From NCBI GenBank assembly GCA_038078835.1, contig JBBTQI010000009.1:3714-67713 (forward strand): 64,000 nt of DNA, in the 5' to 3' direction. Position 1 is the first letter of the stretch; each line of letters opens with the position of its first letter. Source of the stretch: Patescibacteria group bacterium. Its GTDB lineage: Bacteria > Patescibacteriota > UBA1384 > XYA2-FULL-43-10 > 1-14-0-10-43-13. Positions 15,924-57,111 of this stretch are shown here, one piece after another. The notes beneath the pieces are model-generated. The model saw only the letters and a list, made by a program, of their open reading frames with translations, was not told where the DNA came from and made no database searches. The position numbers were made by a program, and so were the translations under genes.

Positions 15924-16061
15924 CAGACTCCTTTGGAGCAAGCTCCAAGTTACAAGATACAGGAACCAAACAATATCTAAATCTCAACTCTCAAGTATCC
16001 CAATTTGAGTTTTGGTTATTGTGATTTGTTTGGGATTTGTATCTTGGTGTTTGGTTATTAC

Positions 16062-31285: not shown

Positions 31286-32287
31286 ATGGCAGACTTAACC
31301 GACAAAAAGCAACTAATTCGTTTTTTGCAACAGCACGGGCTTTATACCAAGAAGAAGCTGGGGCAGAATTTTTTAGTTGATAGGGCTGCGCTCGATAAGA
31401 TTGTCGATGCCGCCGGATTATTAAAAGACGATTGTGTTATCGAGATTGGGCCGGGGTTGGGGGTTTTGACAGAGGAGTTAGTGAAGAGAGCTGGAAAAGT
31501 AGTGGCGGTGGAGCTGGACGCGGCTCTGGCCGAGATTTTAGAAGTTAGATTTTCGAAGTTAGAAGAAAATCAAAAACCTCTAAAATCTAAAATCGATATT
31601 CTAAAATCTGATATTCTTCGTATCAACCTTAGTGAAACCACCAAGGATTGTTCGAGTTATAAAGTCGTTGCCAATATTCCTTACTACATCACATCGAAAA
31701 TCCTACGCTTTTTCTTGGAGGCGGAGAAGAAACCGGAATTGATAGTATTGCTAACGCAAAAAGAGGTAGCCGAAAGAATAGTAGCTAAGCCGGGCGAGAT
31801 GTCGATTCTGTCAGTCTCGGTTCAATACTACGGCCGGCCGGAGATTATAGATATTGTGCCTGAAACATCGTTCTTTCCCATGCCGGAAGTTGATAGTGCA
31901 ATATTAAAAATATCGAATATCCATACCCCCTCTAACTCCCCCTTACTAAGGGGGAGAAATCTAAATAATAGTTCCTTCCTTAAAATAGGGAATATTCCCT
32001 CTGATTCCTCCCCTAAGATAGGGGAGGTTAGGTGGGGTATGGAAAATACCGATGTAAAGGAATTTTTCCGCTGTATTCATATCGGTTTTTCGTCAAGGCG
32101 AAAAACATTACTAAATAACTTATCTGCCGGTTACCATCTGGATAAAAAAACAACGCTTGATATACTGGAAAAAGTGGGCTTGACGGAGAGGACAAGAGCG
32201 CAGGAACTATCAATCGGGAAATGGCAGGAGTTATGCCGCCAGTTGCCGGATTGGGACAGGAAAGACAATGAACGAAGCGGGAGCTAG
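31286..32287 (+). CDS. rsmA: 16S rRNA (adenine1518/1519-N6)-dimethyltransferase RsmA/KsgA, with in-frame repeat and palindrome insertions
   Basis: 'KKKLGQNFLVD...IEIGPGLGVLTEEL'. Insert 1 (31586-31625) is a 'tctaaaatc' repeat. Insert 2 (~31925-32045) carries three palindromes and encodes '...SPLLRGRN...SDSSPKIGEVRWGM'. Confidence 0.9.
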   Translation: MADLTDKKQLIRFLQQHGLYTKKKLGQNFLVDRAALDKIVDAAGLLKDDCVIEIGPGLGVLTEELVKRAGKVVAVELDAALAEILEVRFSKLEENQKPLKSKIDILKSDILRINLSETTKDCSSYKVVANIPYYITSKILRFFLEAEKKPELIVLLTQKEVAERIVAKPGEMSILSVSVQYYGRPEIIDIVPETSFFPMPEVDSAILKISNIHTPSNSPLLRGRNLNNSSFLKIGNIPSDSSPKIGEVRWGMENTDVKEFFRCIHIGFSSRRKTLLNNLSAGYHLDKKTTLDILEKVGLTERTRAQELSIGKWQELCRQLPDWDRKDNERSGS

Positions 32288-35057
32288 ACAAGTTGAAGTT
32301 GAATCAAGAACCGAAAGGCAACAATTTGCCGAGGTTTTAGGTTGGCAGCTTTTTGAGGATAAGGGGCAAAGCAAGAAGATATCACTCAATCGACAGAGCC
32401 GAGAAGTTGTCATTAATCCCGAATTATATCCCGATTCGATTCGAGCTCAAGTTGCCGCCGCTATGGCGGTGATGAAAGAATCTGAAGCTGAAAACATATT
32501 GCGCTTGGAGAGTAAAGATGAAATCAGGGCAATAGTTGAAGGCGACACTGTGGCGGTTGCTGATGTTATGTTGTGGAGTTCGGCCGGTAGACTTAAGGAG
32601 ACCGAAAAGCAGACTCTTGACGCACTCTTAAAAAGCCTATCCCAGACTGAAAGCTATACTCAAGAAGTGAAAAACGCTTGTTTTTCTTATATCGCCACCG
32701 GTTCGTATCCTAATTTGTCTCCAGAGTTAAAACCGTTTTTTGATAATTTACCGATCAGTCGTCAAACCGGTCAGAATCCGATCAGCGCCATTGCCGATAG
32801 TGCAGTCGCTACCGAACGCCGGCTTGAGTATTATGAAAGATTTATTCAGCCAATTATCCAACAAGCCAAAGAGTTGGATCGCCAATTAGAAGATACAATG
32901 GGTGAGTCTTTTAAGCCCTCCACCGACGACAGTGAAGGCGAACCGCTTGAGGAAAACGAGATATTACAAAGAGTTTCGCCTTTTTATGGCGGTTACTACC
33001 GTGAAAGAGTTCTTGATGCCGTTGATTGGGAAAATATGGAGATGGTTGCGACACCGCAACCGGCCGAGATAGACAATGGTGTTGAGATTGAAGAAGCAAC
33101 AGAAGTTAAACAGTATCTTTTCTTTGGTCTGGACGGAAAAAATCTGGCACAAGGGCCAGTATCAATTCCGTTATTGGCACGAGCCAGGATTATTAAAGAC
33201 AGTTTGAGCCCTATCGGTCTAGTTGTTAAAAGAGACACCAAGGGAATCCACTTTCTTTCTCTTGATCAAAAAACCGGCACTAATGCTCCGATTGGAGAGT
33301 ATCAATTAAAATTTATTCTTGAGCCTGGCATTTCTGACTTTATGGCCGCTTTGCCGACGGAGGAAGAAAGTTCGCGCGTTGCGCCGGACGTTCTATTCTC
33401 ACCTGAAACTGTCGAAAAACTTCTTGAGCTTGAACAATTAGAAATTTCCGACACAGCTAAAGCAAAAAGGATTGCTGGTCAAATCCGCCGGGAATTAACC
33501 TATGTCAACGACAGTCAAGTTGGCGAAGCTCTCAAAGTTGCCGGCCGGAATTACTTTAAAGAACTCGAAAGCACCGAGAAAGCGGATTGCGATGTTTCAA
33601 ACTTCTACTTGATCGCTCAACTGCGCTCGATCGGCATCCCCGCTCGCATGGTTAGAGGTTATTATCCGACCGATCAAAGATTCGGTTTTACTCCGCTGAA
33701 GGGGACGACCATGCATGCCTGGACGGAGTACTGGGATGCCGGCGCCAAGTGTTGGAAGATGATTGATGCAACTCCCCCTAAGAAAGAGGAGGAACAGGAA
33801 GAGGGAGAAAAACAGGAGGGAAGCGGTGGCAATCAAGCAATGATTGCACAGCAGGAAGAGGGCAAAATCAGTTTTGAGGGCGAAACAGACGACGAAGGTT
33901 TAGAACTTAATGATGAACAGCTTGAAAAATTCAAAGAGTTATTTAAGCAGAAGTATAACGAAATTACTGGCAGGAAAGATCAAACCGAACAGATTCGTCG
34001 AGATGATTTCCTTAAAGAGTACGGTATCACTCCCGAAGAGTGGGAGAAAATTGAACGATTTGTGAATTCAGTAGATCAGACCGTCATTCCTAAAGAGTAT
34101 ACGATTGGCCGGGCAGATGACTCAACTTTGGGCGAGGAGTGGGATAAGTTTTTCGAGATGTTTTTGGTTGCCTATCGTTTGCCGGCTAAAACCGAGAGAA
34201 CGCTAACCCGCCAGAGTTTAGGAGATGATTTAGTTGATCCCAGCTCAACCGTCACTGACCTTTTGGCCGGAAGCGATGATCCTTTCGGCTTTGAGCGGGT
34301 TAAGCGAGGCGAGCAGGAAATTAAACTGCCAATCGATTTTTCTAATGATTTCCTGCTTGATCTGACTTCCTCAATGGAAGCGGCCGATCGTTATGGCAAT
34401 ACGCTCAGAGAGCATCAAAAAAGATTTGTCATGGAGGCATTATATCATGGCTGGAAGATAAACCAGGGAATTAAAAATCATGAAGGTGAACTGCAGGGCG
34501 AACTCCCATTTATAAGCAACCATCTACTCTCGATTCATGGCAATAATCAATATCGGGAGCTGACATCGGGGCAGAAGGAAATTGCCATGACCCAGCTCTC
34601 AGAGGTAATGAAATTGCTTGATGAGACAGAGCAAGGCGCCGGCAATATGATTGGAGCGCTGGAGCAATATCGAAATGCTTTATTAGCCCAACCCGAAGTC
34701 ATACAAAAAATCCGATCCGGACAAATGGTCAAAACCCTAACCATATTGAGTGACGGCAATATGTGGTGCAGTGCTTGCGGCAAAGAATCCTGTTCGTATA
34801 GTTTAAGCACCGAGGAAGCGGCGAAATCAAAAAGATTGGTTGAAGAGTTGCGAAGAATAGGAGTGATCGTCAACGCCATCGGTTTTACCGGTAATTCACG
34901 TCATGTTATAGATATTTTTGACGACAAAACGGATCCGGGCAGAGCCATTGTGGCCGATAATGTCGAACAAGCAGTTGTAATGCACCACAAGCAACTGGTA
35001 AAATCTTGGCAGGTAATTGAAAAAGCGGCCGAATATCGACAGTTCAGCTTAGCGTAA
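32268..35057 (+). CDS. Large transglutaminase-like (Cys-His-Asp core) + von Willebrand factor A domain protein
   Basis: 929 aa. Its start overlaps the ksgA stop. 'CDVSNFYLIAQLRSIGIPARMVRGYY...TTMHAWTEYWDAGAKCWKMIDAT' is the transglutaminase-like core. The C-terminal 'LLDLTSSM...TILSDG' is vWA MIDAS-like. Confidence 0.6.
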   Translation: MNEAGARQVEVESRTERQQFAEVLGWQLFEDKGQSKKISLNRQSREVVINPELYPDSIRAQVAAAMAVMKESEAENILRLESKDEIRAIVEGDTVAVADVMLWSSAGRLKETEKQTLDALLKSLSQTESYTQEVKNACFSYIATGSYPNLSPELKPFFDNLPISRQTGQNPISAIADSAVATERRLEYYERFIQPIIQQAKELDRQLEDTMGESFKPSTDDSEGEPLEENEILQRVSPFYGGYYRERVLDAVDWENMEMVATPQPAEIDNGVEIEEATEVKQYLFFGLDGKNLAQGPVSIPLLARARIIKDSLSPIGLVVKRDTKGIHFLSLDQKTGTNAPIGEYQLKFILEPGISDFMAALPTEEESSRVAPDVLFSPETVEKLLELEQLEISDTAKAKRIAGQIRRELTYVNDSQVGEALKVAGRNYFKELESTEKADCDVSNFYLIAQLRSIGIPARMVRGYYPTDQRFGFTPLKGTTMHAWTEYWDAGAKCWKMIDATPPKKEEEQEEGEKQEGSGGNQAMIAQQEEGKISFEGETDDEGLELNDEQLEKFKELFKQKYNEITGRKDQTEQIRRDDFLKEYGITPEEWEKIERFVNSVDQTVIPKEYTIGRADDSTLGEEWDKFFEMFLVAYRLPAKTERTLTRQSLGDDLVDPSSTVTDLLAGSDDPFGFERVKRGEQEIKLPIDFSNDFLLDLTSSMEAADRYGNTLREHQKRFVMEALYHGWKINQGIKNHEGELQGELPFISNHLLSIHGNNQYRELTSGQKEIAMTQLSEVMKLLDETEQGAGNMIGALEQYRNALLAQPEVIQKIRSGQMVKTLTILSDGNMWCSACGKESCSYSLSTEEAAKSKRLVEELRRIGVIVNAIGFTGNSRHVIDIFDDKTDPGRAIVADNVEQAVVMHHKQLVKSWQVIEKAAEYRQFSLA

Positions 35058-35070
35058 CTTTGGATATAAC

Positions 35071-37914
35071 ATGAGTGAGACAGAAACACCAACAAATCTA
35101 GCCGGAACGCAGACTCAAGCAGAAACATTTGAGGCCAGTTCTGGTAACGCTGAAAAACCGGTTTATGAGCGCAGGCCGCACCATCCTCTTTCTGCAGCTC
35201 CCCGTTTAATCTTGCGGACTCTTCATCGTTATCGGACCGATATCGAAGCATCTAATAACCAGGCGGATTTAACTCAAGATCAAATTAGCGTCATGATTCT
35301 GGAGGCGATGGCCTTAGCCGATGAATTTCTGGTCCGTCCTACAACTGTTTCTGCCGAGGAGCAGCAAAGGAAAAGGATAGAGGAAAACGAACTCTTTCAT
35401 GGAAAAAGCGGAACAAAATTGGCGGATGCTTTTTTGCAACAGTTGGTGCAGGGAGAAGAGACAGCGTTGTCGGAAGGAGAAAAGGTTGGAACCGAGGAAA
35501 AGATAGAAAGAAACATCGCTGAAATCCTCTCTCACAAACAGGTTAGGAATGAAATTCTGGAAATATTCAAACGGGAATATTCCGTGCGAAAAAATACACA
35601 CGCCAAAATTTCGGAATTAGTTGGTATCGAAAATGCCATTGACACTGCTCGTGCCAGATACAGGCAACTTCAGAACGAACCGAGAGGTATTGATTCTGAG
35701 AGCACAGCTTTGCCAACCGGTATATTACAATCAAATCTCCATAAATACCTTGAGATCATCAGTCAACTTGAGCGAAGAATCAGATTAAAGGAGGCAAGGC
35801 TTAAACCTGAAGAATCAGGGTTGCTTGAAGCATCGCGCCTTCTCAAAATGAAGCGCCAGATGAGAGAGTACGGCTTTGCTATGACCGAATCGCGCCAAGC
35901 GCTTTTTGACCGGATCAGCGAACTGGCCAGCCAAGGATACAAAATATTCTTGGGCGGTCCGACCGGCACGGGCAAAACATCATTGGCTGTTTTTGCCATG
36001 CGCCAGATTATCGGTGACGAAAACAGGTTTGAAGTCGTCTCTTGGTCGCCCGAGACAACCACTCGGGATTTATTCGGCAAACCGATCATTAAAGCAACCG
36101 AGGAAGGCAATATCGAGAGTTCAATGCAAAAGGGGCCTTATGCCAGAATCTTAACCGGCGAAACAAGGGGTATTATCAACGATGAATTCACCGCCGGAAC
36201 GACAGCTTCCCAACTTTCATTGAAGAGAATTTATCAAGCGCACGCCGGCGAAGAGATTAATCTGCCTGGTTTTAACGGCACAGTCTTCACTAAGGAAAAT
36301 TACCTTGAGATTTCGACGGGCAATTTACGCTCCAAGCAACACAAAGAAAGAAGCGAGATGGACCCGGCCGTTGCCAGAGAATTCGTTTCTCTAAGCGTCC
36401 CCTTTATGAATAGCGAGGAGGCGGAGAAGGTAATGTTGTCCAGCCTTATTCATGAAACCGGCTTCTTGCCAATATCTAGAACCGAAGCAGAGATGGTAAA
36501 TCAACTTTGCCGAGCGGCCGAGTTTAGCCAAAAAGCGTTTGAAGACGAATTTACTCCCGAAGAAAAACAGAGCGATCTGTATAAGCAGATCGACCCAAGC
36601 GGTGCCGGGGTTCACTTAACTAAAACATTTTTCGATCCGGCCACGCTTTTTAGACTGGTCGACGGAATTTCCGGAAGACCATTCAAGGAAAATCTGCGGG
36701 TAAATTTAGAAAGGGAAATCAACGAGAGTCCTCATCTTAAAACTTTGCCGCACGAGAAAGAAGCTTTTCTTAAAATTCTTAAAGCTTTCGGTTTTAATCT
36801 TAAGGCAGGGAAGCCGGAAGATTTCTATAGACCAAAATCAACACCTTCGGGGAGTCAAAAACCGTATATACTTCCTTCAGAGCAAGGATTCTTATCAACT
36901 GTCGAAAAAATAACCGAGGATCAATTTGAGGGAGCCGGCCAAGCGGGAAGCTCTGGCGCGGAAAGAGTCGGAGACGGAGAGTGGCCATTTAAGGAAGAGG
37001 AGATGAGCCAGGAAAAAATCGCTGAAATTTACGATCGCTATGCCCGAGTTTATGAACAAGAGGGCATTGTCGAGAACGGCCGGATTGCTCCAAGCCTCAT
37101 TTCGACCGAGGTCAGACAACTCGGTTTGGATTTTGCTATGCCGACCAGAGAAGAGTTTCTGCAATTTATTGCCGAACATTCAGAGAAGGAGAAAAGGTTA
37201 ATTGGTCTTGGTTTGATTGAACCGGTCATTGTACCGGTAGCCGCCGACTTAGGCGAAGCTATTCCTGTAACGGCCAGTGAAGAGTACCGCTATAGCGGTT
37301 TGCTTGATATTGTCGCCGCCAAAATCAAAGAACTGGGAGAGGCCGGCCAGCTTCTTGGCAGTGACGGCACGCAAATTACTTGTAATCCCAAATGGCCGAT
37401 CTATGTTAATGATTTATACAAAAAGCTGCGTTTTATGCTCCAAAAAAAAGACGGCACTTTGCAAGGCGGGTTAACGCAAAAGACTTATATCGAAGAGCAG
37501 CAAAAAGACGGCCACCCCTTCCCGGGCTGGGCAATTTACTTTAAGGAAAGGGGCAATATATTGCCTCGAAACAGAGACAGCCAGCCGGATTTAACTGATA
37601 TGACGGCCGATAAAGAGTTATCAAAATATATCGAGGCACTCCATGATCCCAATAAATTAAATATGACCGGCTCCTCGGTTCATCTTGAACTCATGCTTCT
37701 CCTCGAGTCGCTTATCAGAGACAAGAAAGTAACGCGCGACTGGAACAATAATCAAGATGCCGGAGCGGTTCTTGGTGCCAACACCTTTGAAGGTTCCGGC
37801 CGCGTGCCGTTCTACGCCTGGCGTCGCGGCGCTGGCCAGTTAGACCTGAACGCCTACTATCCCGACAATCACTTCTCTGATGTTGTCGGTGTGCCTGCCG
37901 GTGAGATCAGCTGA
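35071..37914 (+). CDS. Large AAA+ ATPase (MoxR/AAA_5-like) with a hypervariable C-terminal region (DGR variable repeat)
   Basis: 947 aa. Walker A 'LGGPTGTGKTSLA' and Walker B 'GIINDEF'. The last ~38 codons are the variable-repeat partner of a template repeat 310 nt downstream. Confidence 0.6.
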   Translation: MSETETPTNLAGTQTQAETFEASSGNAEKPVYERRPHHPLSAAPRLILRTLHRYRTDIEASNNQADLTQDQISVMILEAMALADEFLVRPTTVSAEEQQRKRIEENELFHGKSGTKLADAFLQQLVQGEETALSEGEKVGTEEKIERNIAEILSHKQVRNEILEIFKREYSVRKNTHAKISELVGIENAIDTARARYRQLQNEPRGIDSESTALPTGILQSNLHKYLEIISQLERRIRLKEARLKPEESGLLEASRLLKMKRQMREYGFAMTESRQALFDRISELASQGYKIFLGGPTGTGKTSLAVFAMRQIIGDENRFEVVSWSPETTTRDLFGKPIIKATEEGNIESSMQKGPYARILTGETRGIINDEFTAGTTASQLSLKRIYQAHAGEEINLPGFNGTVFTKENYLEISTGNLRSKQHKERSEMDPAVAREFVSLSVPFMNSEEAEKVMLSSLIHETGFLPISRTEAEMVNQLCRAAEFSQKAFEDEFTPEEKQSDLYKQIDPSGAGVHLTKTFFDPATLFRLVDGISGRPFKENLRVNLEREINESPHLKTLPHEKEAFLKILKAFGFNLKAGKPEDFYRPKSTPSGSQKPYILPSEQGFLSTVEKITEDQFEGAGQAGSSGAERVGDGEWPFKEEEMSQEKIAEIYDRYARVYEQEGIVENGRIAPSLISTEVRQLGLDFAMPTREEFLQFIAEHSEKEKRLIGLGLIEPVIVPVAADLGEAIPVTASEEYRYSGLLDIVAAKIKELGEAGQLLGSDGTQITCNPKWPIYVNDLYKKLRFMLQKKDGTLQGGLTQKTYIEEQQKDGHPFPGWAIYFKERGNILPRNRDSQPDLTDMTADKELSKYIEALHDPNKLNMTGSSVHLELMLLLESLIRDKKVTRDWNNNQDAGAVLGANTFEGSGRVPFYAWRRGAGQLDLNAYYPDNHFSDVVGVPAGEIS
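37792..37905 (+). repeat. DGR variable repeat (VR1) at the 3' end of the AAA+ gene
   Basis: ~114 nt. It is ~88% identical to 38225-38328. 13 of 15 mismatches fall where the downstream copy has adenine (the downstream copy has AAC/AAT codons; here they read CGC/TTC/TAC/TAT/GCC). Confidence 0.65.
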
Positions 37915-38224
37915 CCTTGAGCTTTGATCTTTAAATTTTCTTTTGACTTTGTTTTTGAACTTTGGGATAATGTTATTGGCCAGCGAAACGATCCTGCCGC
38001 AAGACAAGGGCCGCTGGCATTTGTGCCGGCAAATGATCTGTTGCAAAGAGCCTTGTGCTTAGTTTGGACAGAGTGCCGCCACCGTCTAAAAAGTGTTTTC
38101 TCACGTTTGAGTCCTGCCTACCTGGCCTTACTGAAAGAGCCAGGTGTAACAAGCAAGCCAATGCATTGTTAGGAGTTTGCGAACTTTTAACACATCACGG
38201 ACGGACGGGATCAACTTGGGTTCC

Positions 38225-38328
38225 GGCAACGTGCCGAACTGCGAATGGCATCGCGGCGCTGGCCAGTTCAACCTGAACGCCAACAATCCCGACAATCACT
38301 ACTCTGATGTTGTCGGTGTGCCTGCCGG
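38225..38328 (+). repeat. DGR template repeat (TR1), the adenine-rich cognate of VR1
   Basis: It encodes 'GSGNVPNCEWHRGAGQFNLNANNPDNHYSDVVGVPAGE'. The VR encodes 'GSGRVPFYAWRRGAGQLDLNAYYPDNHFSDVVGVPAGE'. Confidence 0.65.
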
Positions 38329-38589
38329 TGAGGAGGCACTTTTTAATTGAGCGACTTGAGCCAGCCGCCAAGCTGTTGTCCTGTTTCACTTATGACTGCT
38401 TGGGCTTGGAATATTTTAGTTGTGTTAGCCAGGTTGAGTTCGAGTAGCAGTCTTAACTTAAGGGCGACAATCTCCAAATGACTTTGGGCGACGACAAGAT
38501 AGCCGGATTTTAGCGGCTTGAGATTTTTCCAACGGGGCGCCGATTGAAAAGACGAAACTGGTATCGCGCGATAAATCGTTTGTCAGAGA

Positions 38590-38773
38590 AGAATTATTCA
38601 AGCTACCACGGATTGGTTAAACAGCATTGCAATTACAAAAAAAGACGGTATTTCAACTGGCTCCTTGGATAAAAAACTAGTGCTTGGTATACTGGTATCG
38701 GTTGGATTGAATGACAAAACTCGGGCGCAGGAATTGCCGGTTAACAAGTGGGAGCAACTTTGCGAAAGATTTT
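38590..38773 (+). pseudogene. Diverged duplicate of the ksgA 3' end (remnant/displaced copy)
   Basis: It translates to '...SLDKKLVLGILVSVGLNDKTRAQELPVNKWEQLCERF*'. The ksgA C-terminus is 'HLDKKTTLDILEKVGLTERTRAQELSIGKWQELCRQL'. Nucleotide identity is roughly 60-65%. Confidence 0.5.
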
Positions 38774-40391: not shown

Positions 40392-41189
40392 ATGAATGAG
40401 AGATCAGGCACACTTTTTATCGTTGCCACGCCGATCGGCAACTTGGAGGACATTACGCTTCGGGCGATTCGGGTCTTGCAGGATGTTGACCTGATTGCTT
40501 GCGAGGATACGCGAGTGACGCGGCATCTCTTAGATCACTTTGAGATCAAAACACCAACAGTGTCATATTTTCAGCACTCTAAATTATCGAAGATCGACTA
40601 CCTGATATCGGAGCTGCGGTCGGGCAAAGATATCGCCTTAATTTCCGATGCCGGCACACCGGCAATCAGCGATCCGGGACAGGAGTTAATTGCTAACATT
40701 CGTCAGGCTTGTCATTCTGAACCCTTCGGCCTTACTCAGGGTAAACTCCGTGAAGAATCTAGGTCGCCAAAGGCGACCGTAAATAAGAGTGCGGCTTCGC
40801 CTAGATCCTTCGCTAACGCTCAGGATGACATCAGGGTGGTGCCCATCCCCGGCCCGTCGGCTTTGACGGCGGCGGCGAGTGTCTCCGGTATGATCGAGAA
40901 AGAGTTTTACTTTGCCGGGTTTTTGCCCAAGAAAAAGGGCCGGCAGACAGAATTAAAGAAACTATCGAAGCTCGATGTGCCGATTATAATGTACGAATCA
41001 ACTTTAAGGTTAGAGCGAACGCTTGCCGATATTAAAACGTATTTTGATGACAAGACCGAAGTCTTTGTTGCTCGAGAAATGACCAAAATGTTTGAAGAGT
41101 ATTGGGGCGGGAAGATAGATGAAGTCTTAAACGATCTCAAGAGTCACAAGTTAAAAGGTGAGATTGTGTTGGTGGTCAAGAAATTATAA
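40392..41189 (+). CDS. rsmI: 16S rRNA (cytidine1402-2'-O)-methyltransferase RsmI, with a ~40-aa in-frame insertion
   Basis: 'GTLFIVATPIGNLEDITLRAIRVLQDVDLIACEDTR...' and 'VVPIPGPSALTAA'. The insertion 'CHSEPFGLTQGKLREESRSPKATVNKSAASPRSFANAQDDIR' at ~40710-40835 contains the hairpin 'ctaggtcgccaaaggcgacc'. Confidence 0.8.
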   Translation: MNERSGTLFIVATPIGNLEDITLRAIRVLQDVDLIACEDTRVTRHLLDHFEIKTPTVSYFQHSKLSKIDYLISELRSGKDIALISDAGTPAISDPGQELIANIRQACHSEPFGLTQGKLREESRSPKATVNKSAASPRSFANAQDDIRVVPIPGPSALTAAASVSGMIEKEFYFAGFLPKKKGRQTELKKLSKLDVPIIMYESTLRLERTLADIKTYFDDKTEVFVAREMTKMFEEYWGGKIDEVLNDLKSHKLKGEIVLVVKKL

Positions 41190-41223
41190 GTCGTATAGGA
41201 CATATAAGACGTATAGGGTGTAT

Positions 41224-41742
41224 ATGTACAAAGATTTGAAAACTTACCAGAATACAGTAATCATCCATGACTTTACCGTTGAGTTTTGCCGGCGATATGT
41301 TGATTACAAATCCCGAACGAAAGATCAGATGGAGCAGGCGGCCAGATCCGGCAAACAGAACATTACGGAGGGGTGTGAAGCTTCCCGAACTTCCAAAAAA
41401 ACCGAGTTAAAGCTGCTTGGTGTTGCTTATGCCTCGCTGAAAGAGTTGCTGGAAGATTATGAGGATTATCTTCGCCAGCATAATTTAGCTCTTTGGGTCA
41501 AAGATTCAGAGCCAGCCAAGGCTGTCCGAGCCTTGGCATATACGACTCATAAGTCTTATATGACCTATAAGTCGTATATGGAGAAACCGGAAGAAGCTTG
41601 CAACGCGATGATATGTCTCATAAGCCAGACCACTTACATGCTGAGTAACCAAATTAAATCTCTAAAGGAGGCGTTTTTACAGGAAGGTGGTTTTACAGAA
41701 AACCTCTACAAAGAGCGTTCGGAAAGGCGAGGGCGAAAATAA
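41224..41742 (+). CDS. Four-helix-bundle protein (23S rRNA intervening-sequence protein family), flanked and interrupted by 'tataagNcgtata' repeats
   Basis: '...TYQNTVIIHDFTVEFCRRY...ARSGKQNITEGCEASRTSK...' resembles PF05635. The repeats lie at 41176-41220, 41536-41581 and 41741-41780. Confidence 0.55.
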   Translation: MYKDLKTYQNTVIIHDFTVEFCRRYVDYKSRTKDQMEQAARSGKQNITEGCEASRTSKKTELKLLGVAYASLKELLEDYEDYLRQHNLALWVKDSEPAKAVRALAYTTHKSYMTYKSYMEKPEEACNAMICLISQTTYMLSNQIKSLKEAFLQEGGFTENLYKERSERRGRK

Positions 41743-42444: not shown

Positions 42445-42561
42445 TATATTGACCAGTTGGCTCATGTGAGCCTGATTGCCTCGCCTTGCACCGTGCTTAG
42501 CGCTGGTGTAAGGCGAGCATCGTTCGTACGAGGAGGCGTACCTCTCAAACGCAGAAATGGG

Positions 42562-43246
42562 ATGACGACGATGGCAAAGACCATTGATCGCGTTCTCGAC
42601 GAAGTCAAGCCGAAGGCCAGCCAGATCGGAGATCTGGCGATGCACGGCGCTCTTAAGAGTGGCTTGTCCGCAGAAGACCTCCAGCGCGTCATCGAACGCG
42701 GCGGGGAGTTCCAGGACGCCATCCAGCCGATCCTTTGGCGCCTCGGTGCCGCTGTAACCCTGGTGGACTCCGATCTGCTTCAGCCGGTCACGTTCGTGCC
42801 GGTCGAGGGCACCGAGTCCTTCAAGGCTGGCGAGCACTTCAAGCGGGGCACCACCGACAGTGTAGTCATAGGCTACGTCGGATCGAACTTCGAGGCCGCG
42901 TTCGGGGGCAAGGTGGAGACCAACATCCCGAAGGCAAACTTGCGCATCCACCGGCTTCGCCAGAGCAGCATCGACGCCCCGATCATTGCTGGGCTCGGCG
43001 GCGAGGCGCAGGTCGAAAACCAGCCTGGCCCACCTCTGGGAGCTGCTGAAGCTCCAGGGCCACGGGCAGGAAGGTGTCCTGCTCACCAACGGGTGGGCGA
43101 ACATCTTCTACATCCGCGACTCGAACGGGATCCTCTGGGCGGTCTACTGCTGCTGGTACTCCGGCGCCGGCTTCTGGTGCGTCGAAGCCAATCCGGTCAC
43201 GTATCCGTTCAGGTGGGGCGATGGCTGCCGGGTCGTCTCCCGCTGA
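42562..43246 (+). CDS. GC-rich hypothetical protein carrying a DGR variable repeat at its C-terminus (probable frameshift at an A4 run, 43016-43019)
   Basis: Frame 1 is protein-like up to '...GGEAQVEN'. Frame 2 is protein-like from 'SLAHLWELLKLQGHGQEGVLLTNGWANIFYIRDSNGILWAVYCCWYSGAGFWCVEANPVTYPFRWGDGCRVVSR*'. Deleting one A merges them. The start codon is uncertain. Confidence 0.5.
43135..43243 (+). repeat. DGR variable repeat (VR2)
   Basis: 109 nt, collinear with 43610-43718. All 17 nucleotide differences fall where the downstream copy has adenine: TAC/TGC/TTC/GGC/TAT/CGG here versus AAC/GAC/AAT/CAG downstream. Confidence 0.75.
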
Positions 43247-43315: not shown

Positions 43316-43609
43316 CGACACAGGTGGCTCTTCCCAGCTCTCTTTGGAGGGTAGCGGAAGGGCCACCTTTTCTGTTAATGTGAGTGCAGGAATCGTAAAG
43401 CGCAACGGCTACGGCTTTTGCCTACGTTCTTAAGTCTTTATTCTCCCAGAATTGCTTCGGGCACGCCTTAAGCAAGAGCGGTTACTAAGGATTTTCAAAA
43501 AATGAAATGAATCGGTGCTAACTATTGGCAGACTTTTAGGTCTCAAATAAAATACAGCAAAGCGAAGCAATTTGTTTGCGGTGATTACAGAGGATAGTTA
43601 GTACATTAT

Positions 43610-43718
43610 CTGGGCGGTCAACTGCAACTGGAACTCCGACGCCGGCAACTGGAACGTCGAAGCCAATCCGGTCACGAATCCGAACAGGTGGAACGATGGC
43701 AACCAGGTCGTCTCCCGC
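43610..43718 (+). repeat. DGR template repeat (TR2), adenine/AAC-rich
   Basis: It encodes 'WAVNCNWNSDAGNWNVEANPVTNPNRWNDGNQVVSR'. The VR encodes 'WAVYCCWYSGAGFWCVEANPVTYPFRWGDGCRVVSR'. Confidence 0.75.
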
Positions 43719-43980
43719 AACTCATTTCTTTTCTTCCACTCCGGTGGAAGTTTTTGATATCAAACCTTTTCGCCAACCCCCAACCATTCTGCCAATCTCG
43801 TTAAACTGTTCAGAGACGGCAATGTATTTTTTGTTATCCAGCGCTTTGATTTCCCAAGCAACCAGTCAATCATATTCGGGTTTGCTGGGGCATGGCAATG
43901 GCTATAAGATTGGGTAAAAAATTGATTTGAGGGTAAAGCGCTTATTGTAGATTAAGCCTGATTTTGATAGGATTTCATTA

Positions 43981-45549
43981 ATGAGCAAGAAATATTATAT
44001 TACAACCCCAATTTATTACGTTAATGATGTCCCGCACGTCGGTCATGCTTACACCACTATTGCGGCGGATGTTTTGGCGCGGTATCACCGGGAAAAAGGC
44101 GAGGAGGTCTTTTTTTTGACCGGCACGGACGAGCATGGGGCCAAGATTGCCGAGGCGGCGGAGAAGGCCGGCAAAGAGCCTAAGGCTTTTGTCGATGAAC
44201 TGGCGCCGAAGTTCCAAGAGGTTTGGAAGAAATTAAATATTAATTATTCCGAATTTTTTAGAACGACCAATCCCGAGCACGAGAGGCTGGTGCAGGAGTT
44301 TATCGGGCGGGTTAATAAGGCCGGTTACATCGAGAAACGGCAATACACCGGACTCTATTGCATTGCCTGCGAGCGGTATTATCGCGAGGATGAGTTAATC
44401 GACGGCAAGTGTCCAGATCACAAGCGCGAGCTCGTCAGGCAATCAGAGGAAAATTATTTCTTTCTTTTATCCAAATTTGGAGATCAATTACTGGAAAAGA
44501 TCGAATCTGGTGAGATGGAGATCGGGCCGGAGACGCGCAAGAATGAGATCGTCAGCAAGATAAAACTGGGTCTGGAGGATATCAGTATTTCCAGAGCTAA
44601 TGTTAAGTGGGGCATTCCTTTTCCCGGAGACGAATCTCAAACTATTTATGTCTGGTTCGATGCACTGCTAAATTATTGGACGGCGACGAAGATCTACGGC
44701 CAAGATAAGGGGGACAGTCCCCAGGCTGCAAAGGGGACAGTCCCCGGACCGGAATGGCCGGCGGATTTGCACTTGATGGCCAAGGACATTTTGTGGTTTC
44801 ATGCCGTGATTTGGCCGGCGATGCTCCTTGCGGCCGGTGAGGCTGTGCCTAAAAAGGTCTTTGCTCACGGCTTCTTCACTATCAACGGTCAAAAGATGAG
44901 CAAGACACTGGGTAATGTCATTAACCCCAACGAAGTCGTCGACAAATTCGGCGCCGATGCCGTTCGCTACGCCCTTCTGCGCGAATTCCCCTTTGGCGAA
45001 GACGGCGATATCTCGGTGGAGAAGATCGGCGAGCGCCATAAAGAGCTGGCGGATACCTTGGGGAATTTACTTCAACGTACTGTCGTGATGATTAATAAAT
45101 ATCAAGTCCATACCACCTCTAGCCCCTCCTACCCTAGGAGGGGAAATGGGGAGATTGACCCAACCCATTCTTCCCTCCCTAAGATAGGTAGTCTATCTTC
45201 CGATTCCTCCCCTAAGATAGGGGAGGCTAGGTGGGGTATGAGTATTAACTTAGATATTGAATCATCGCAATTTTCTCGCGCTTTGGAGAAGATCATGACT
45301 TTTGCGGCGAAGCAGAACCAATTTATTAATGAGAAAGCGCCGTGGGTTTTAGCCAAAGAAGGCAAAACGAATGAAATTAAAGAGGTTTTAAGTGCAGTTT
45401 ATGGTAACCTTATGATAATATCGGAACTTTTCATACCCTTCATGCCCGAGACGGCTAAAAAGATGAAACAGCAGTTGGAATCATTGAAACCCGAGCCGTT
45501 ATTCCCCAGAATCGACTTAGATAAAACACAGATGATGAAAGCAGATTAA
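43981..45549 (+). CDS. metG: Methionyl-tRNA synthetase (short form), with a ~45-aa in-frame palindromic insertion
   Basis: 'PIYYVNDVPHVGHAYTT' (HIGH) and 'KMSKTLGNV' (KMSKS). The insertion at ~45115-45245 encodes 'SSPSYPRRGNGEIDPTHSSLPKIGSLSSDSSPKIGEARWGM'. Its 41 nt at 45201-45241 are nearly identical to ksgA 32000-32040. Confidence 0.9.
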   Translation: MSKKYYITTPIYYVNDVPHVGHAYTTIAADVLARYHREKGEEVFFLTGTDEHGAKIAEAAEKAGKEPKAFVDELAPKFQEVWKKLNINYSEFFRTTNPEHERLVQEFIGRVNKAGYIEKRQYTGLYCIACERYYREDELIDGKCPDHKRELVRQSEENYFFLLSKFGDQLLEKIESGEMEIGPETRKNEIVSKIKLGLEDISISRANVKWGIPFPGDESQTIYVWFDALLNYWTATKIYGQDKGDSPQAAKGTVPGPEWPADLHLMAKDILWFHAVIWPAMLLAAGEAVPKKVFAHGFFTINGQKMSKTLGNVINPNEVVDKFGADAVRYALLREFPFGEDGDISVEKIGERHKELADTLGNLLQRTVVMINKYQVHTTSSPSYPRRGNGEIDPTHSSLPKIGSLSSDSSPKIGEARWGMSINLDIESSQFSRALEKIMTFAAKQNQFINEKAPWVLAKEGKTNEIKEVLSAVYGNLMIISELFIPFMPETAKKMKQQLESLKPEPLFPRIDLDKTQMMKAD

Positions 45550-49681: not shown

Positions 49682-52156
49682 ATGAAGAACAATGAATCTA
49701 AAAACATCTCTCTCTCGATCTCCGGAATGCACTGCTCTTCCTGCGCGGGCATCATTGAGAGAGCGCTTAAAAAGACGCCGGGAGTAAAATCGGCCAATGT
49801 TAACTTTGCGGCCGAAAAAGCCCTTATCCACCTCAACGAAAAAGGCGCTTCTCCCCTAGATCTTATTGGCGCTGTGAAAAAAGCCGGCTACAAGGCCCAG
49901 CTTATTGACAGAAATGATACCGAGCATGAATCAGCTAAGCGTCAAAGAGAGACTGTTGCTCTCTGGAAAAAGTTCCGCTTCAGTTTCACGCTAAGCCTCC
50001 CTATGCTCTACTTTATGCTGCTTGATTTTTTTAAGTGGCTGCCGGGCGCCGAGCTGTTGCCGCCCTATTTTGGCGTTATTTCCTTTCTTCTGGCTACACC
50101 GGTCCAATTCATCGTCGGCGCCGGTTTCTATAAAGGGATGTGGTCAAGTCTTCGTATGAAGACATTTAATATGGATTCCCTGATTGCTATTGGTACTTCG
50201 ACGGCTTATCTCTACAGTTTGGTTAATTTCTTTATATTTATGGCGCAGAACGGAACATTGCTCGGTTTGGCCGGAGAAAAGATTCCCGAACTTTACTTTG
50301 AAACTGCCGCTTTTCTCATAACCTTTGTTGGGCTTGGCAAATGGTTGGAGGCGCGGGCAAAGGGCCGAACATCGGAAGCGATCAAGAAATTAATGGGGTT
50401 GCAGGCTAAGACGGCTCGTGTTATTCGGAATGGTGTGACCTCGGATATTCCAATCGACGAAGTTGTAACCGGCGATATTATTCTGGTTCGCCCCGGTGAG
50501 AAAATCCCGGTTGACGGTAAGATCGTCAAGGGCTCATCTGCCATTGATGAGTCAATGATTACTGGCGAATCCTTGCCGGTTGAGAAAAATGTTGGTGATG
50601 GTGTTGTCGGTGCTACAATTAACAAAACCGGCTCATTCGAATTTGAAGCCACTCGTGTCGGTTCGGAAACGACTTTGGCTCAGATCATTCGCCTGATTGA
50701 AGAAGCCCAGGGTTCCAAGGCGCCAATTCAAGCGTTTGCCGACCGCATCTCGGCTTACTTTGTGCCAATTGTGATCGCATTAGCCATCTTGACATTTATC
50801 GTTTGGTTTTTGATACTTGGTGAAAGTTTGTCTTTCGCCCTTATGGCTTTCACTGCCGTCATTGTTATAGCCTGTCCCTGCGCTTTGGGCCTGGCAACAC
50901 CGACAGCAATTATGGTTGGCACCGGCAAGGGCGCCGAGCATGGCATTCTTGTTAAGGGCGGCGAACCGCTTGAAAAAGCCTGCAAGATAAACACAGTAGT
51001 TTTTGATAAAACCGGAACATTGACCAATGGTAAACCGGTTGTGACTGATATTTTGACTCTGAGCGATGTGGATGAAGATGAAGTTTTAGCAATTGCGGCC
51101 AGTCTGGAAAAATCCTCAGAACATCCTTTGGCTGAGGCAATTTACACTTATGCCAATAAAGAGTCCATCGCCCTGGAAGATGTCGTCAATTTCAAAGCAA
51201 TCCCCGGCCATGGAGTCGAGGGCAATATTGGCAAGACTAAATATTATTTTGGTAACCGGCGGCTTATTGAAACGATTGGGCTGGATACTCAGCTTCAAGT
51301 TTCAAGTTTCAAGCTTCAAGAACTAGAGGAGCAGGGTAAGACTGCCATGATTCTGGCGACGAAAGAAAAAATTGTCGGCATCATCGCCGTCGCCGATACA
51401 GTTAAAGAAACTTCCAAGGAAGCTGTGGCTAAATTACAAGCAAGGGGCATTACTGTCTATATGATCACCGGCGACAATGAACGCACTGCTAAAGCCATTG
51501 CCAAGGAGGTTGGCATTACTAACGTCCTGGCAGAAGTTCTACCCAAAGATAAAGCCGCTGAAGTCAAAAGGCTTCAGAATGACCAGCCGCCGGGAGACAA
51601 TAACCAAACAAAGACATCTGGCAATTTGAGAATTGGAACTCGGAATTTATTTGGTTTTTGGAGTTTGGTATTTGGTGTTTCCACAACTCGTCAAAAACGA
51701 GTTGTGGCCATGGTTGGCGACGGTATTAATGATGCTCCCGCTCTGGCTCAGGCCGATCTGGGCATTGCCATGGGTAGCGGCACGGATGTAGCTATGGAAA
51801 CGGGCGGCATTGTTATCATTAAAAATGACCTAAATGATGTCGTAAATGCTATTCAGTTGTCCATGGAAACAATGAGTAAAATCAAGCAAAATATGTTCTT
51901 TGCTCTCTTCTATAATGTTGCCGGCATTCCGATTGCCGCCCGGGTTTTTGCCGGCGCCGGCCTGATTTTAAAACCGGAGTTGGCCGGCTTGGCTATGGCT
52001 CTCTCCTCTGTCTCGGTTGTAACCAACTCTCTTTTGCTTCGCCGCTATCAGCCAAACCGCAGAAACTGGCTTTCCCTCATTGCTCCCCCTGTAATGATCG
52101 TGTTCTTCTTCCTTCTTTTTCTTGAATTTGCCCGCTTGAGCACGGAGATGAAGTAA
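49682..52156 (+). CDS. copA: Copper-translocating P1B-type ATPase CopA, with a ~40-aa in-frame insertion
   Basis: 'GMHCSSCAG' (HMA), 'CPC', 'DKTGTLT' and '[10 protein letters not shown]'. The insertion '[41 protein letters not shown]' at ~51585-51700 contains the perfect palindrome 'ccacaactcgtcaaaaacgagttgtgg' and a 'tttgg' repeat. There is also a 'caagtttcaagtttcaagcttcaag' tandem at 51294-51320. Confidence 0.92.
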
Positions 52157-55749: not shown

Positions 55750-55987
55750 ATTTCGCGAACTAGTACCGTTACATCTTGATTTCAGTGCAGTTTCTCCAAA
55801 CTCTAACACACCGGTTTTAAAAGGGACTGTGCTGCGTCAAAACTATGATGTAACGGTACTAGTGGCGGCATATCTCATCGAACAAGGCAAAAGTCCAGCA
55901 AAAGCTGTTGAGTTCATTAAAACAAAACGTCCATCGGTTCACCTACGGGACGCTCAAAAAGAAGTCTTATATGAATTCTCACAATAA
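55691..55987 (+). pseudogene. Possible remnant of a dual-specificity phosphatase C-terminus (no catalytic CxxGxxR loop)
   Basis: 'VTVLVAAYLIEQGKSPAKAVEFIKTKRPSVHLRDAQKEVLYEF' resembles a DSP C-terminal helix. A 17-bp perfect inverted repeat (55761-55777 and 55848-55864) lies in the region. Confidence 0.25.
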
Positions 55988-55998
55988 TCGGGAGGGGT

Positions 55999-57111
55999 TT
56001 GTCTCTTATTGCACTCAAAAACCTACTTCAAGAAAGAACTAAGTTGGCTATCTGTATTGGTGGCGTAGCTTTTTCTGTTCTCCTTATCCTGATTATGAAC
56101 GGTCTTTATCAGGGCTGGAGCGTTAAAATGGGAGCCTATCCCGAAAGCATTCCGGCCGATCTTTGGGTGGAGCAAGCCGGAGTTGGCGACATGTATCATG
56201 CACTCTCGTTTTTGCCGGACAATCTCTCCGCTAAATTAGAGAGTATCGAAGGGGTAAGGAGCGCCAACAAATATCTTGGCCGGCAGGCGATGTTTGATTA
56301 CAACGGCAAAGACCGATCTCTTTTTTTGGTTGGACTTGATACAAAAACCGGCACAACAAAGCCGTACAAAATGAAGGAGGGCAGTTGGCAGAATTTGAAA
56401 GACGGAGAGATAATTATCGATCAAGTATTTGCCAAAGATACAAGTTTGAAAATTGGCGATACTTTAGACATTAACGGCGAAAAACTAAGAATCGCCGGCA
56501 TCTCTGACGGCGGCAACATAATCACTTTCTCTTTTGCTTTCGTCACCATGCAACAGGCGGCCAAAATGTTCAATTTGGGCGAAAAGGTTAATTTCTATCT
56601 CTTAAATATTGACTCTGCCGCAGATTTGTTAACTGTTAAGAATCGTGTCGAAAAAGAAATATCCGGATCAAAGGTTCTGACTAAGACCGAGTATGTTACA
56701 ACTTCGAAGAAGGTTATCACCGACACATTTCTCCCAATTATTGCAGTATTGGTTGTTATCGCACTGGCGGTTGGCATTGCCGTTATCGGACTGACTACCT
56801 ACTCGGCCACAATTGAGAAAGCCCGCGAGTATGGGGTATTAAAAGCTATTGGCCTCAATAACCTTCAACTTTTCAAGACTGTTATTATCCAGGCGCTAAT
56901 TTCCGGTTTAATCGGCTACGTGGTGGGTGTTGGATTAGCCTATCTTGTCGGATATATTGCCACGAATATAGTATCTGCTTTTGTGACCCTAATTCGTCCG
57001 GTTGATCTGCTTTGGGTTTTTGGGGCTACGGTTCTAATGTCTTTAATTGCCGCCTATATCCCGATGAAAAGAATTTTTTCTATTGATCCAGCAGAGGTGT
57101 TTAAGTCTTAA
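55999..57111 (+). CDS. ABC transporter permease (FtsX-like/MacB-type)
   Basis: N-terminal TM, a large extracytoplasmic domain, then three C-terminal TMs. Confidence 0.75.
   Translation: MSLIALKNLLQERTKLAICIGGVAFSVLLILIMNGLYQGWSVKMGAYPESIPADLWVEQAGVGDMYHALSFLPDNLSAKLESIEGVRSANKYLGRQAMFDYNGKDRSLFLVGLDTKTGTTKPYKMKEGSWQNLKDGEIIIDQVFAKDTSLKIGDTLDINGEKLRIAGISDGGNIITFSFAFVTMQQAAKMFNLGEKVNFYLLNIDSAADLLTVKNRVEKEISGSKVLTKTEYVTTSKKVITDTFLPIIAVLVVIALAVGIAVIGLTTYSATIEKAREYGVLKAIGLNNLQLFKTVIIQALISGLIGYVVGVGLAYLVGYIATNIVSAFVTLIRPVDLLWVFGATVLMSLIAAYIPMKRIFSIDPAEVFKS

Follow-up and report, generated by a model that had tools for sequence, protein, structure and literature searches.

Diversity-generating retroelements (DGRs) in the candidate phyla radiation (CPR) follow a recurrent plan. 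The B3 layout, written template repeat (TR)-(avd)-reverse transcriptase (RT), is found in 90% of CPR DGRs, and the targets classed as UVR4 match the Midasin AAA domain (Wu et al. 2018, PMC5758913). In another account, which cites Paul et al. 2017 on this point, the fusion of an AAA ATPase to a domain of the C-type-lectin (CLec) kind is given as the commonest architecture of CPR DGR targets (PMC10907252). Here we analyse a 64,000-nt stretch of a Patescibacteria metagenome-assembled genome (MAG; contig JBBTQI010000009.1), hereafter the window, in which the 3′ end of a gene for a 947-residue AAA+ ATPase is repeated a short way downstream. The two copies, variable repeat 1 (VR1) and TR1, are a genuine DGR pair on this known class of CPR target, and what distinguishes their cassette is that its own RT and most of its avd gene are missing. 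We read the locus as the remains of a CPR-type B3 DGR on an AAA-CLec target, now non-autonomous and with a variable repeat that is most likely frozen, and put the probability of this reading at roughly two-thirds (0.68).

Results

VR1 and TR1 differ chiefly at template adenines

VR1 and TR1 are direct repeats of 114 nt each that align without gaps, at an offset of 427 nt and with 313 nt between them (Table 1); the open reading frame that contains VR1 stops two codons beyond it. An earlier reading of this sequence (the original prediction) had placed the downstream copy at 38225-38328, too narrow by a few bases, and had counted 13 of 15 differences at its adenines. Exact tabulation gives 13 mismatches, 11 of which fall at the 23 adenines among the 114 nt of TR1 (hypergeometric p=1.3e-7). 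In this preset test the mismatches are not spread evenly over the four bases, and the A-biased pair that had been predicted at the end of the AAA+ gene therefore stands. The two non-A differences named in that prediction are also present, at positions 37814 (TAC in VR1, TGC in TR1) and 37842 (TTA in VR1, TTC in TR1). Ten of the 38 codons are changed, every one of them non-synonymously; changes at A sites account for eight of the ten, and five of these eight are AAY codons in TR1.

The 3′ ends of the two copies are the same over 31 nt (37875-37905 in VR1; 61% GC), an identity that had been recognized earlier with its length underestimated at ~25 nt, and divergence beyond it is abrupt. Because these final 31 nt are identical, the initiation of mutagenic homing (IMH) and IMH* sequences cannot be told apart at this locus, and IMH = IMH* has also been reported for some DGRs by Wu et al. 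(PMC5758913). There is no GC-rich hairpin directly 3′ of VR1, the sole inverted repeat being a 7-bp stem 74 nt downstream. No match to TR1-derived patterns, with N in place of the adenines, occurred among GTDB genomes or JGI metagenomes, collections that lack the source MAG.

Of the two copies, the one in the gene is the variable repeat and the one downstream the template of a DGR, because the mismatches are A-specific, the variable repeat lies at the 3′ end of its reading frame and within a CLec-like fold, and four related loci carry a TR, a reverse-strand avd and an RT in the same setting. A promoter-like site between the target gene and TR1 could drive a TR1 transcript, and a terminator-like hairpin lies beyond TR1. 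An Rfam scan of 30-47 kb returned no relevant match, and across loci the VR-to-TR and post-TR DNA is too divergent in alignment to test for a conserved RNA element. As a separate observation, a T/G-rich intergenic family of ~49 nt with TTTGA/TTTGG periodicity occurs just 3′ of genes at 1968-2016, 16005-16053, 37916-37964 and 51626-51674. The copy at 37916-37964, 3′ of the AAA gene, includes the promoter-like sequence, and a similar motif comes after the variable repeats of two related loci, L001 and L018.

Related loci carry complete cassettes

In L001 (Berkelbacteria), a transglutaminase-like gene is followed by an AAA gene with a variable repeat, a 298-residue stand-alone paralog of the C-terminal domain with a variable repeat of its own, the TR, bAvd on the minus strand and the RT; 18/18 and 19/21 mismatches lie at TR adenines. 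L018, from another Patescibacteria MAG, shares this layout (23/27 and 17/18 at TR adenines). In L021 (Paceibacterota), whose AAA protein is 38% identical, the transglutaminase-like gene and the AAA gene with its variable repeat are followed by a TR 379 nt downstream, a minus-strand avd and the RT, with 12/12 mismatches at A. L025 combines a vWA/CobT_C partner with an AAA_5 gene whose C-terminal domain is of the window's type and contains the variable repeat, a TR 413 nt downstream, minus-strand bAvd and the RT (19/21 at A); the TR peptide of this complete DGR, GLVPNAYWNRDNQQANVNNANPDDANQNDGVRSAVRI, is homologous to the peptide GSGNVPNCEWHRGAGQFNLNANNPDNHYSDVVGVPAGE encoded by TR1. The intact B3 layout is thus seen in L001, L018, L021 and L025, and also in L015. 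All relatives with sufficient flanks keep an RT and avd adjoining the TR, and their complete DGRs contain 0-4 non-A mismatches.

The RT and most of avd are missing beyond TR1

The minus-strand avd pseudogene after TR1 has its stop 11 nt beyond the TR1 end. Its recognizable part (38349-38498) corresponds to Avd residues ~68-116 of ~119, without a start codon or the N-terminal half. This remnant is found by tblastn with the L001 Avd (E=0.027), by Pfam bAvd PF22296 (E=1.1e-3, profile positions 53-106 of 107) and by a hidden Markov model (HMM) of four Avd sequences (E=5.5e-7), and blastp matches it to four intact Avds.

The RT motifs YxDD and IGxxxSQ occur in none of the six frames of the window. 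There, tblastn with the L001 RT found no match, and an HMM of 60 CPR RTs matches short C-terminal stretches only. A search for RT homologs returned 7982 CPR-type RTs, without locus tags by which one could be assigned to this MAG. Gene tables of the source contig likewise list no RVT_1 gene at positions 62115-138777 (76 kb); in this numbering, that of a 179,340-bp contig from Hainich groundwater well H43, the window occupies positions 70065-134064. Lacking an RT, and with no more of avd than its 3′ ~45%, the cassette is not able to act alone.

Immediately past the avd pseudogene, ~20 codons on the plus strand (SEKNYSSYHGLVKQHCNYKK) resemble the CPR RT C-terminal motif QSYLGlLKHCrgyk, at exactly the position and on exactly the strand expected from L001, L018 and L021. 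The RT HMM (E=2.8) and the motif HMM (E=8.6) do not reach significance singly, and the resemblance is no more than suggestive of the last codons of a lost RT gene.

From TR1 onward, the avd remnant, a 3′ pseudo-copy of ksgA and an Nramp gene follow one another without a break. The gene that precedes the ATPase gene, its partner (32268-35057), begins inside the real ksgA (31286-32287). As ksgA overlaps the partner and a copy of its 3′ end recurs downstream, the intervening segment looks inserted or replaced, with its own ksgA 3′ end brought along. The partner gene, AAA gene, TR, avd remnant and possible RT tail would then form a segment inserted at, or recombined into, the ksgA 3′ end, and the pseudo-copy would mark the right-hand edge of that segment. 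The real ksgA also contains one copy of a 70-nt element (31972-32041), the other copy of which lies in metG (45171-45240). The copies are 84% identical around an exact palindromic core, TTCCTCCCCTAAGATAGGGGAGG, and lie in frame in both genes, adding ~23 residues (..SDSSPKIGE.RWGM..) to each, an arrangement reminiscent of Rickettsia palindromic elements.

A second cassette, from a different DGR lineage, is truncated alike

The other DGR pair that had been predicted, at 43 kb, is real: all 17 mismatches between VR2 and TR2 lie at TR2 adenines. Beyond TR2, an avd remnant matching Avd residues ~85-115 (tblastn E=6.8e-6; Avd HMM E=7e-9) is followed by ~19 codons of an RT 3′ end, QATSQSYSGLLGHGNGYKI, which a motif HMM built from 93 CPR DGR RTs detects over the six-frame window at E=3.1e-4. 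As the avd remnants of the two cassettes are 29% identical, the cassettes derive from two different DGRs, truncated alike. The second target gene (42560-43246) is split over two frames at the A4 run 43016-43019, with VR2 in frame with the short downstream part only, and the split is identical in all Hainich contigs. The gene is an apparent frameshifted pseudogene, conceivably with a programmed shift instead. Together, the truncation of this cassette and its frameshifted target favour decay of DGR function in the genome.

Two further candidates in the window were rejected. A gene for a 194-residue four-helix-bundle protein (41158-41742, plus strand), considered as the missing Avd, encodes a TIGR02436/TIGR04258 protein and not bAvd. 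This protein, encoded between the two truncated cassettes, matches the ‘four helix bundle suffix’ TIGR04258 at E=7e-20, has YKSY/YKTY repeats and belongs to the 23S-rRNA-IVP superfamily, kin of Avd. A third relic near 55.9 kb was set aside as its RT-like stretch is weak and neither a VR/TR pair nor an avd fragment lies nearby. Over 55884-56024 (plus strand) this stretch resembles ~47 residues at the C-terminus of CPR DGR RTs (E=0.019 with the full RT HMM) and finds no support from the motif-only HMM; it may be a relic or chance.

The target is a MoxR/midasin-like ATPase with a CLec-like C-terminus

By its sequence, the N-terminal part of the target protein is a MoxR/midasin-like AAA+ ATPase of the AAA_5 group (dynein/midasin/MoxR-related). 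The Pfam AAA_5 match is close to the cutoff (E=1.6e-4; 22.2 bits, cutoff 22), and the Walker motifs are intact: Walker A GGPTGTGKT at residues 295-303 and a Walker B-like IINDE at 368-372, with invariant residues across the homolog alignment. PF07728 is precomputed on most AAA homologs, some sources naming them ‘MoxR-like ATPase’. The original prediction of an AAA+ NTPase whose C-terminus is a sensor-like domain is borne out by the AAA_5 match and accords with published CPR DGR targets. The protein is identical to AAB360_02715, annotated as a hypothetical protein of a Patescibacteria MAG, and is the single member of its 90% cluster. A PDB sequence search with the AAA profile yielded no informative match, PADLOC assigned neither the target nor the partner to a defence family, and an NCBIfam scan returned nothing useful for the module. 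Neither a signal peptide nor a convincing transmembrane segment is found in the target, nor a credible one in the partner, so both proteins are probably cytoplasmic.

The closest AAA homologs match only the N-terminal ~620 residues, their C-termini being of a related but different sub-family (ending ...GVSFSRSQ, as against ...P.GEL/I in the window's type). With the C-terminal 335 residues, a full HMMER scan found 11 relatives; a word-index homolog search returned nothing, not even the target protein itself, and a related-locus search with the C-domain alignment found no relatives. Most of the 11 are stand-alone proteins of 350-370 residues in tandem arrays; in one, P0071, the domain forms part of a protein with another AAA_5 ATPase. 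When the relatives are aligned, scaffold positions prove conserved (..VTRD.., G..C.W.R..G, P.GEL) and the stretch matching VR1 highly variable. Tandem arrays of three to five stand-alone paralogs occur on two short Logan contigs (L008, 5368-8207; L009, 1-4921), on neither of which a TR is visible.

AlphaFold2 run on the alignment of relatives gave a confident model of this domain (predicted local distance difference test, pLDDT, 90.2; predicted template modelling score 0.89); the single sequence gave pLDDT 36 and no usable model. The model is CLec-like, the C-type-lectin/FGE-like type of fold for which a test had been suggested earlier. The variable domain of this sub-family, to which no fold had previously been assigned, is thus modelled as a divergent form of CLec, with VR1 in its predicted final strands. 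Foldseek searches with the domain against PDB and BFVD gave no match at E<0.3.

The partner gene forms a conserved module with the ATPase gene

Residues 394-497 of the partner form a transglutaminase-like core of papain fold (Pfam Transglut_core E=7.1e-11), and its C-terminal ~250 residues contain vWA-like motifs that resemble the metal-ion-dependent adhesion site (MIDAS): DLTSS (698-702), TLTILSDGN (823-831) and VNAIGFT (868-874). The elements DxTxS, T..DG and VNxxGFT are invariant across four homologs. Its match to Pfam VWA_3 is below threshold (E=0.13), and a PDB sequence search with the partner profile matched only the transglutaminase core, with no vWA match. Of the neighbour predicted earlier, a transglutaminase-like protein with a vWA domain, the first half is thus secure, and the second, supported at the level of motifs, is a domain that the window's partner possibly contains.

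Partner-type genes lie directly 5′ of the AAA gene in L001, L004, L018 and L021. In L025 the protein encoded upstream as partner is clearly of the vWA kind (CobT_C E=5e-17; VWA E=4e-5). The MIDAS-like motifs, together with the proven vWA partner in L025, point to a MoxR-vWA-type couple of ATPase and partner. The window, L001, L018 and L021 have no third conserved neighbour in common, and the module comprises two genes.

Unrelated to the cassettes, a giant protein of 2296-2383 residues with ~50-residue repeats (..VW.WNGT.W..IGG..) and weak fn3 matches is encoded from ~59070 to 64000 and on past the window (L013, 11167-18057); it is the source of most direct-repeat families in the window.

Table 1. 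Coordinates of the two DGR cassettes and their surroundings, in window numbering
Feature	Position	Strand	Description
Partner gene	32268-35057	+	929 aa; transglutaminase-like core and vWA-like C-terminal motifs
DGR target gene	35071-37914	+	947 aa; AAA_5 N-terminal ~620 aa, CLec-like C-terminal 335 aa
C-terminal domain	36907-37911	+	residues 613-947; predicted divergent C-type-lectin/FGE-like fold, VR in last strands
VR1	37792-37905	+	variable repeat, codons 908-945
Promoter-like site	37943-37971	+	TTGACT-17-tgGATAAT; 10/12 consensus matches; between target gene and TR1
TR1	38219-38332	+	template repeat; 23 adenines, 7 AAY codons; encodes GSGNVPNCEWHRGAGQFNLNANNPDNHYSDVVGVPAGE
avd pseudogene	38346-38582	-	only 3′ ~45% left; stop 11 nt beyond TR1 end
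Terminator-like hairpin	38501-38528	+	downstream of TR1
Possible RT tail	38583-38642	+	~20 codons; SEKNYSSYHGLVKQHCNYKK
ksgA 3′-end pseudo-copy	38657-38773	+	last ~38 codons, SLDKKLVLGILVSVGLNDKTRAQELPVNKWEQLCERF*; 72% DNA identity to 32139-32206
VR2	43134-43243	+	17/17 mismatches at TR2 adenines
TR2	43609-43718	+	template of VR2
Second avd remnant	43725-43865	-	Avd residues ~85-115
RT 3′-end remnant	43855-43911	+	~19 codons; QATSQSYSGLLGHGNGYKI

Discussion

A probable non-autonomous remnant

We consider the first cassette to be a non-autonomous and probably inactive remnant. In such a history, whether it took place in this lineage or in the one that donated the segment, the RT would once have reverse-transcribed the TR RNA, placing random bases wherever the template had an adenine, and the mutagenised cDNA would have replaced VR1, re-coding eight codons of a putative ligand-binding surface. 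Later, an internal deletion across the divergent avd/RT junction could have removed the RT; alternatively, the segment may have arrived already truncated. The suggestion in the original prediction that this DGR is older or less active than the one at 43 kb thus points in the right direction, for a different reason. Its two non-A mismatches must be rejected as a sign of age, since complete DGRs have them at the same rate; it is the missing RT gene and the truncated avd that argue for age or reduced activity.

Several points weigh against our reading of the locus. First, with 2/13 non-A mismatches, no more than in complete DGRs, the pair itself carries no age signal. Second, TR1 remains intact; at the codons where VR1 encodes Tyr and Leu, it still specifies the Cys and Phe of the family consensus, which would not be expected of a long-dead, neutrally drifting template. 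Third, promoter-like and terminator-like sites still flank TR1. Fourth, our search for the RT covered the window and 76 kb of contig in a genome of roughly 1 Mb, and the RT-tail remnant of the first cassette is without statistical significance on its own. Finally, the sensor/effector mechanism that we propose for the module rests wholly on analogy.

Alternatively, the first cassette could be an active ‘satellite’, in which an RT and Avd encoded elsewhere in the genome act in trans on TR1 (with ~200 nt downstream) and on TR2, so that VR1 is still being diversified. The intact TR1 with its AAY codons, the restriction of all 17 VR2-TR2 differences to adenines, the retention in both cassettes of the TR plus 150-240 nt downstream, the promoter-like and terminator-like sites around TR1 and a rate of non-A mismatches equal to that of complete DGRs all fit such service, and several DGR loci per CPR genome are often seen (PMC10907252). 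Against it, no RT is found within 76 kb, the second target is frameshifted, and relatives with enough flank all keep RT and avd beside the TR. Moreover, the 29% identity of the avd remnants indicates different DGR descent, so a single foreign RT-Avd pair would have to recognize both RNAs. VR1 is also identical in all seven contigs that carry it, a further point against continuing diversification. These contigs come from several Hainich samples of one well, encode an identical target protein and differ by 0-2 SNPs (single-nucleotide polymorphisms) per 8-22 kb; because they represent one clonal population, the sameness of VR1 across them is uninformative about variation, and the ‘hypervariable’ C-terminus of the original prediction goes further than these data. 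On balance we regard mutagenesis of VR1 in trans as unlikely, with perhaps the odds of an outsider, and the more specific proposal that the TR1 and TR2 cassettes are functional template modules served by a single RT/Avd elsewhere in the genome as somewhat less likely again. If it were true, one RT would drive several unrelated TRs, and would recognize as its RNA element the fragment kept 3′ of each TR, 150-240 nt of antisense-avd sequence together with the RT tail.

Loss of the RT through misassembly or misbinning, with avd and RT collapsed or mis-joined after TR1, is very improbable. The VR/TR repeats of DGR loci can confuse short-read assemblers, but the same junctions were assembled independently from at least three samples (L005, 179 kb; L006, 23.7 kb; L007, 8.2 kb) with 0-2 mismatches to the window, the avd remnant, ksgA pseudo-copy and Nramp gene are contiguous, and an avd 3′ fragment in its proper place is not expected from a mis-join. 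Least credible of all, and already refuted by the mismatch tabulation and the avd remnant, is a plain copy of the gene 3′ end made by segmental duplication or gene conversion without reverse transcription. In its favour, two of 13 differences off the downstream-copy adenines could be cited, against the A-bias (p=1.3e-7), the bAvd fragment after the downstream copy and the same layout with an intact RT in four related loci.

We therefore return to a remnant of a once complete DGR, now non-autonomous. Whichever of decay and dependence applies, the window shows two neighbouring cassettes of different DGR lineages that lost the avd 5′ end and kept VR and TR; nearly all of the RT is lost from both, demonstrably in the second and apparently in the first. 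Variation at VR1, if true, would make the locus a natural case of trans-acting DGR mutagenesis.

Function of the two-gene module

Together with the gene for a transglutaminase-like, probably vWA-bearing partner, the target family makes up a conserved two-gene module that recurs in CPR lineages distant from one another: Berkelbacteria, Paceibacterota and probably Wildermuthbacteria (an AAA homolog only, on a contig too short to include its neighbours). We found no mention of a transglutaminase-like partner of CPR AAA-CLec targets in the published accounts compared. The lack of export signals points to an intracellular sensor/effector, defence-like role over one in host attachment, and by analogy the AAA-CLec protein is probably an intracellular sensor. 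The CLec surface of the ATPase would bind a ligand derived from an invader or from the partner, and ligand binding would set off ATP-driven remodelling by the AAA-CLec protein. By analogy with MoxR-vWA and STAND-CLec systems, the signal would then be relayed to the transglutaminase-like, thiol-peptidase-like partner as effector.

Comparison with known systems

The DGR of Bordetella phage BPP-1 (mtd-avd-TR-brt) shares with the window A-to-N mutagenesis between VR and TR and a GC-rich identical 3′ end, like that of IMH/IMH*. It differs in avd orientation and gene order and in its target, a phage tail fibre rather than a cellular, probably cytoplasmic ATPase; the window, moreover, lacks a GC-rich hairpin directly after VR1 and an RT.

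The original prediction had invoked NTP-dependent conflict systems, a comparison that our analysis upholds as a likeness to MoxR and STAND systems (PMC10907252, PMC5758913, PMC7159879). The STAND NTPase-CLec targets of clade 5D DGRs (PMC10907252) likewise consist of an NTPase followed by a C-terminal, DGR-diversified CLec sensor, with a proposed logic that runs from sensor through NTPase switch to effector. Unlike them, the window's ATPase is AAA_5/MoxR-like and not STAND/NACHT, the DGR belongs with the CPR RT clade, and a separate gene alongside encodes the putative effector. In the MoxR-vWA ‘VMAP ternary’ systems (Kaur et al. 2020, PMC7159879; Dore et al. 2024, PMC10907252), as probably in the window, an AAA+ ATPase of the MoxR clade is coupled to a vWA protein, a likely one in the window, and to an effector of the peptidase type, the components are cytoplasmic, and a DGR-varied CLec/FGS domain is the presumed sensor; transglutaminase-like peptidases are rare in VMAPs. 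The varied CLec domain, however, is fused to the ATPase in the window and to the vWA protein in VMAP systems. The window's module also has two genes rather than three, with no VMAP domain found, and its host is an ultra-small CPR bacterium, in contrast to a multicellular one.

The nearest counterparts are the CPR B3 DGRs themselves (PMC5758913; RT clade 2 of Roux et al. 2021, PMC8144416). They have the same gene order and orientation, with a 3′ VR in the target, a same-strand TR 300-400 nt downstream of it and an opposite-strand avd ending at the TR, and they share adenine-specific substitutions and a groundwater CPR host; the window's cassette departs from them in having no RT gene and an avd cut to its 3′ ~45%. 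The C-terminal 335 residues of the window's protein belong to another sub-family than those of its closest AAA homologs. In overall design the window's protein matches the AAA-CLec and UVR4 targets of CPR DGRs (UVR4 being compared by description), with an AAA_5 N-terminus and a variable repeat in a C-terminal, CLec-like domain.

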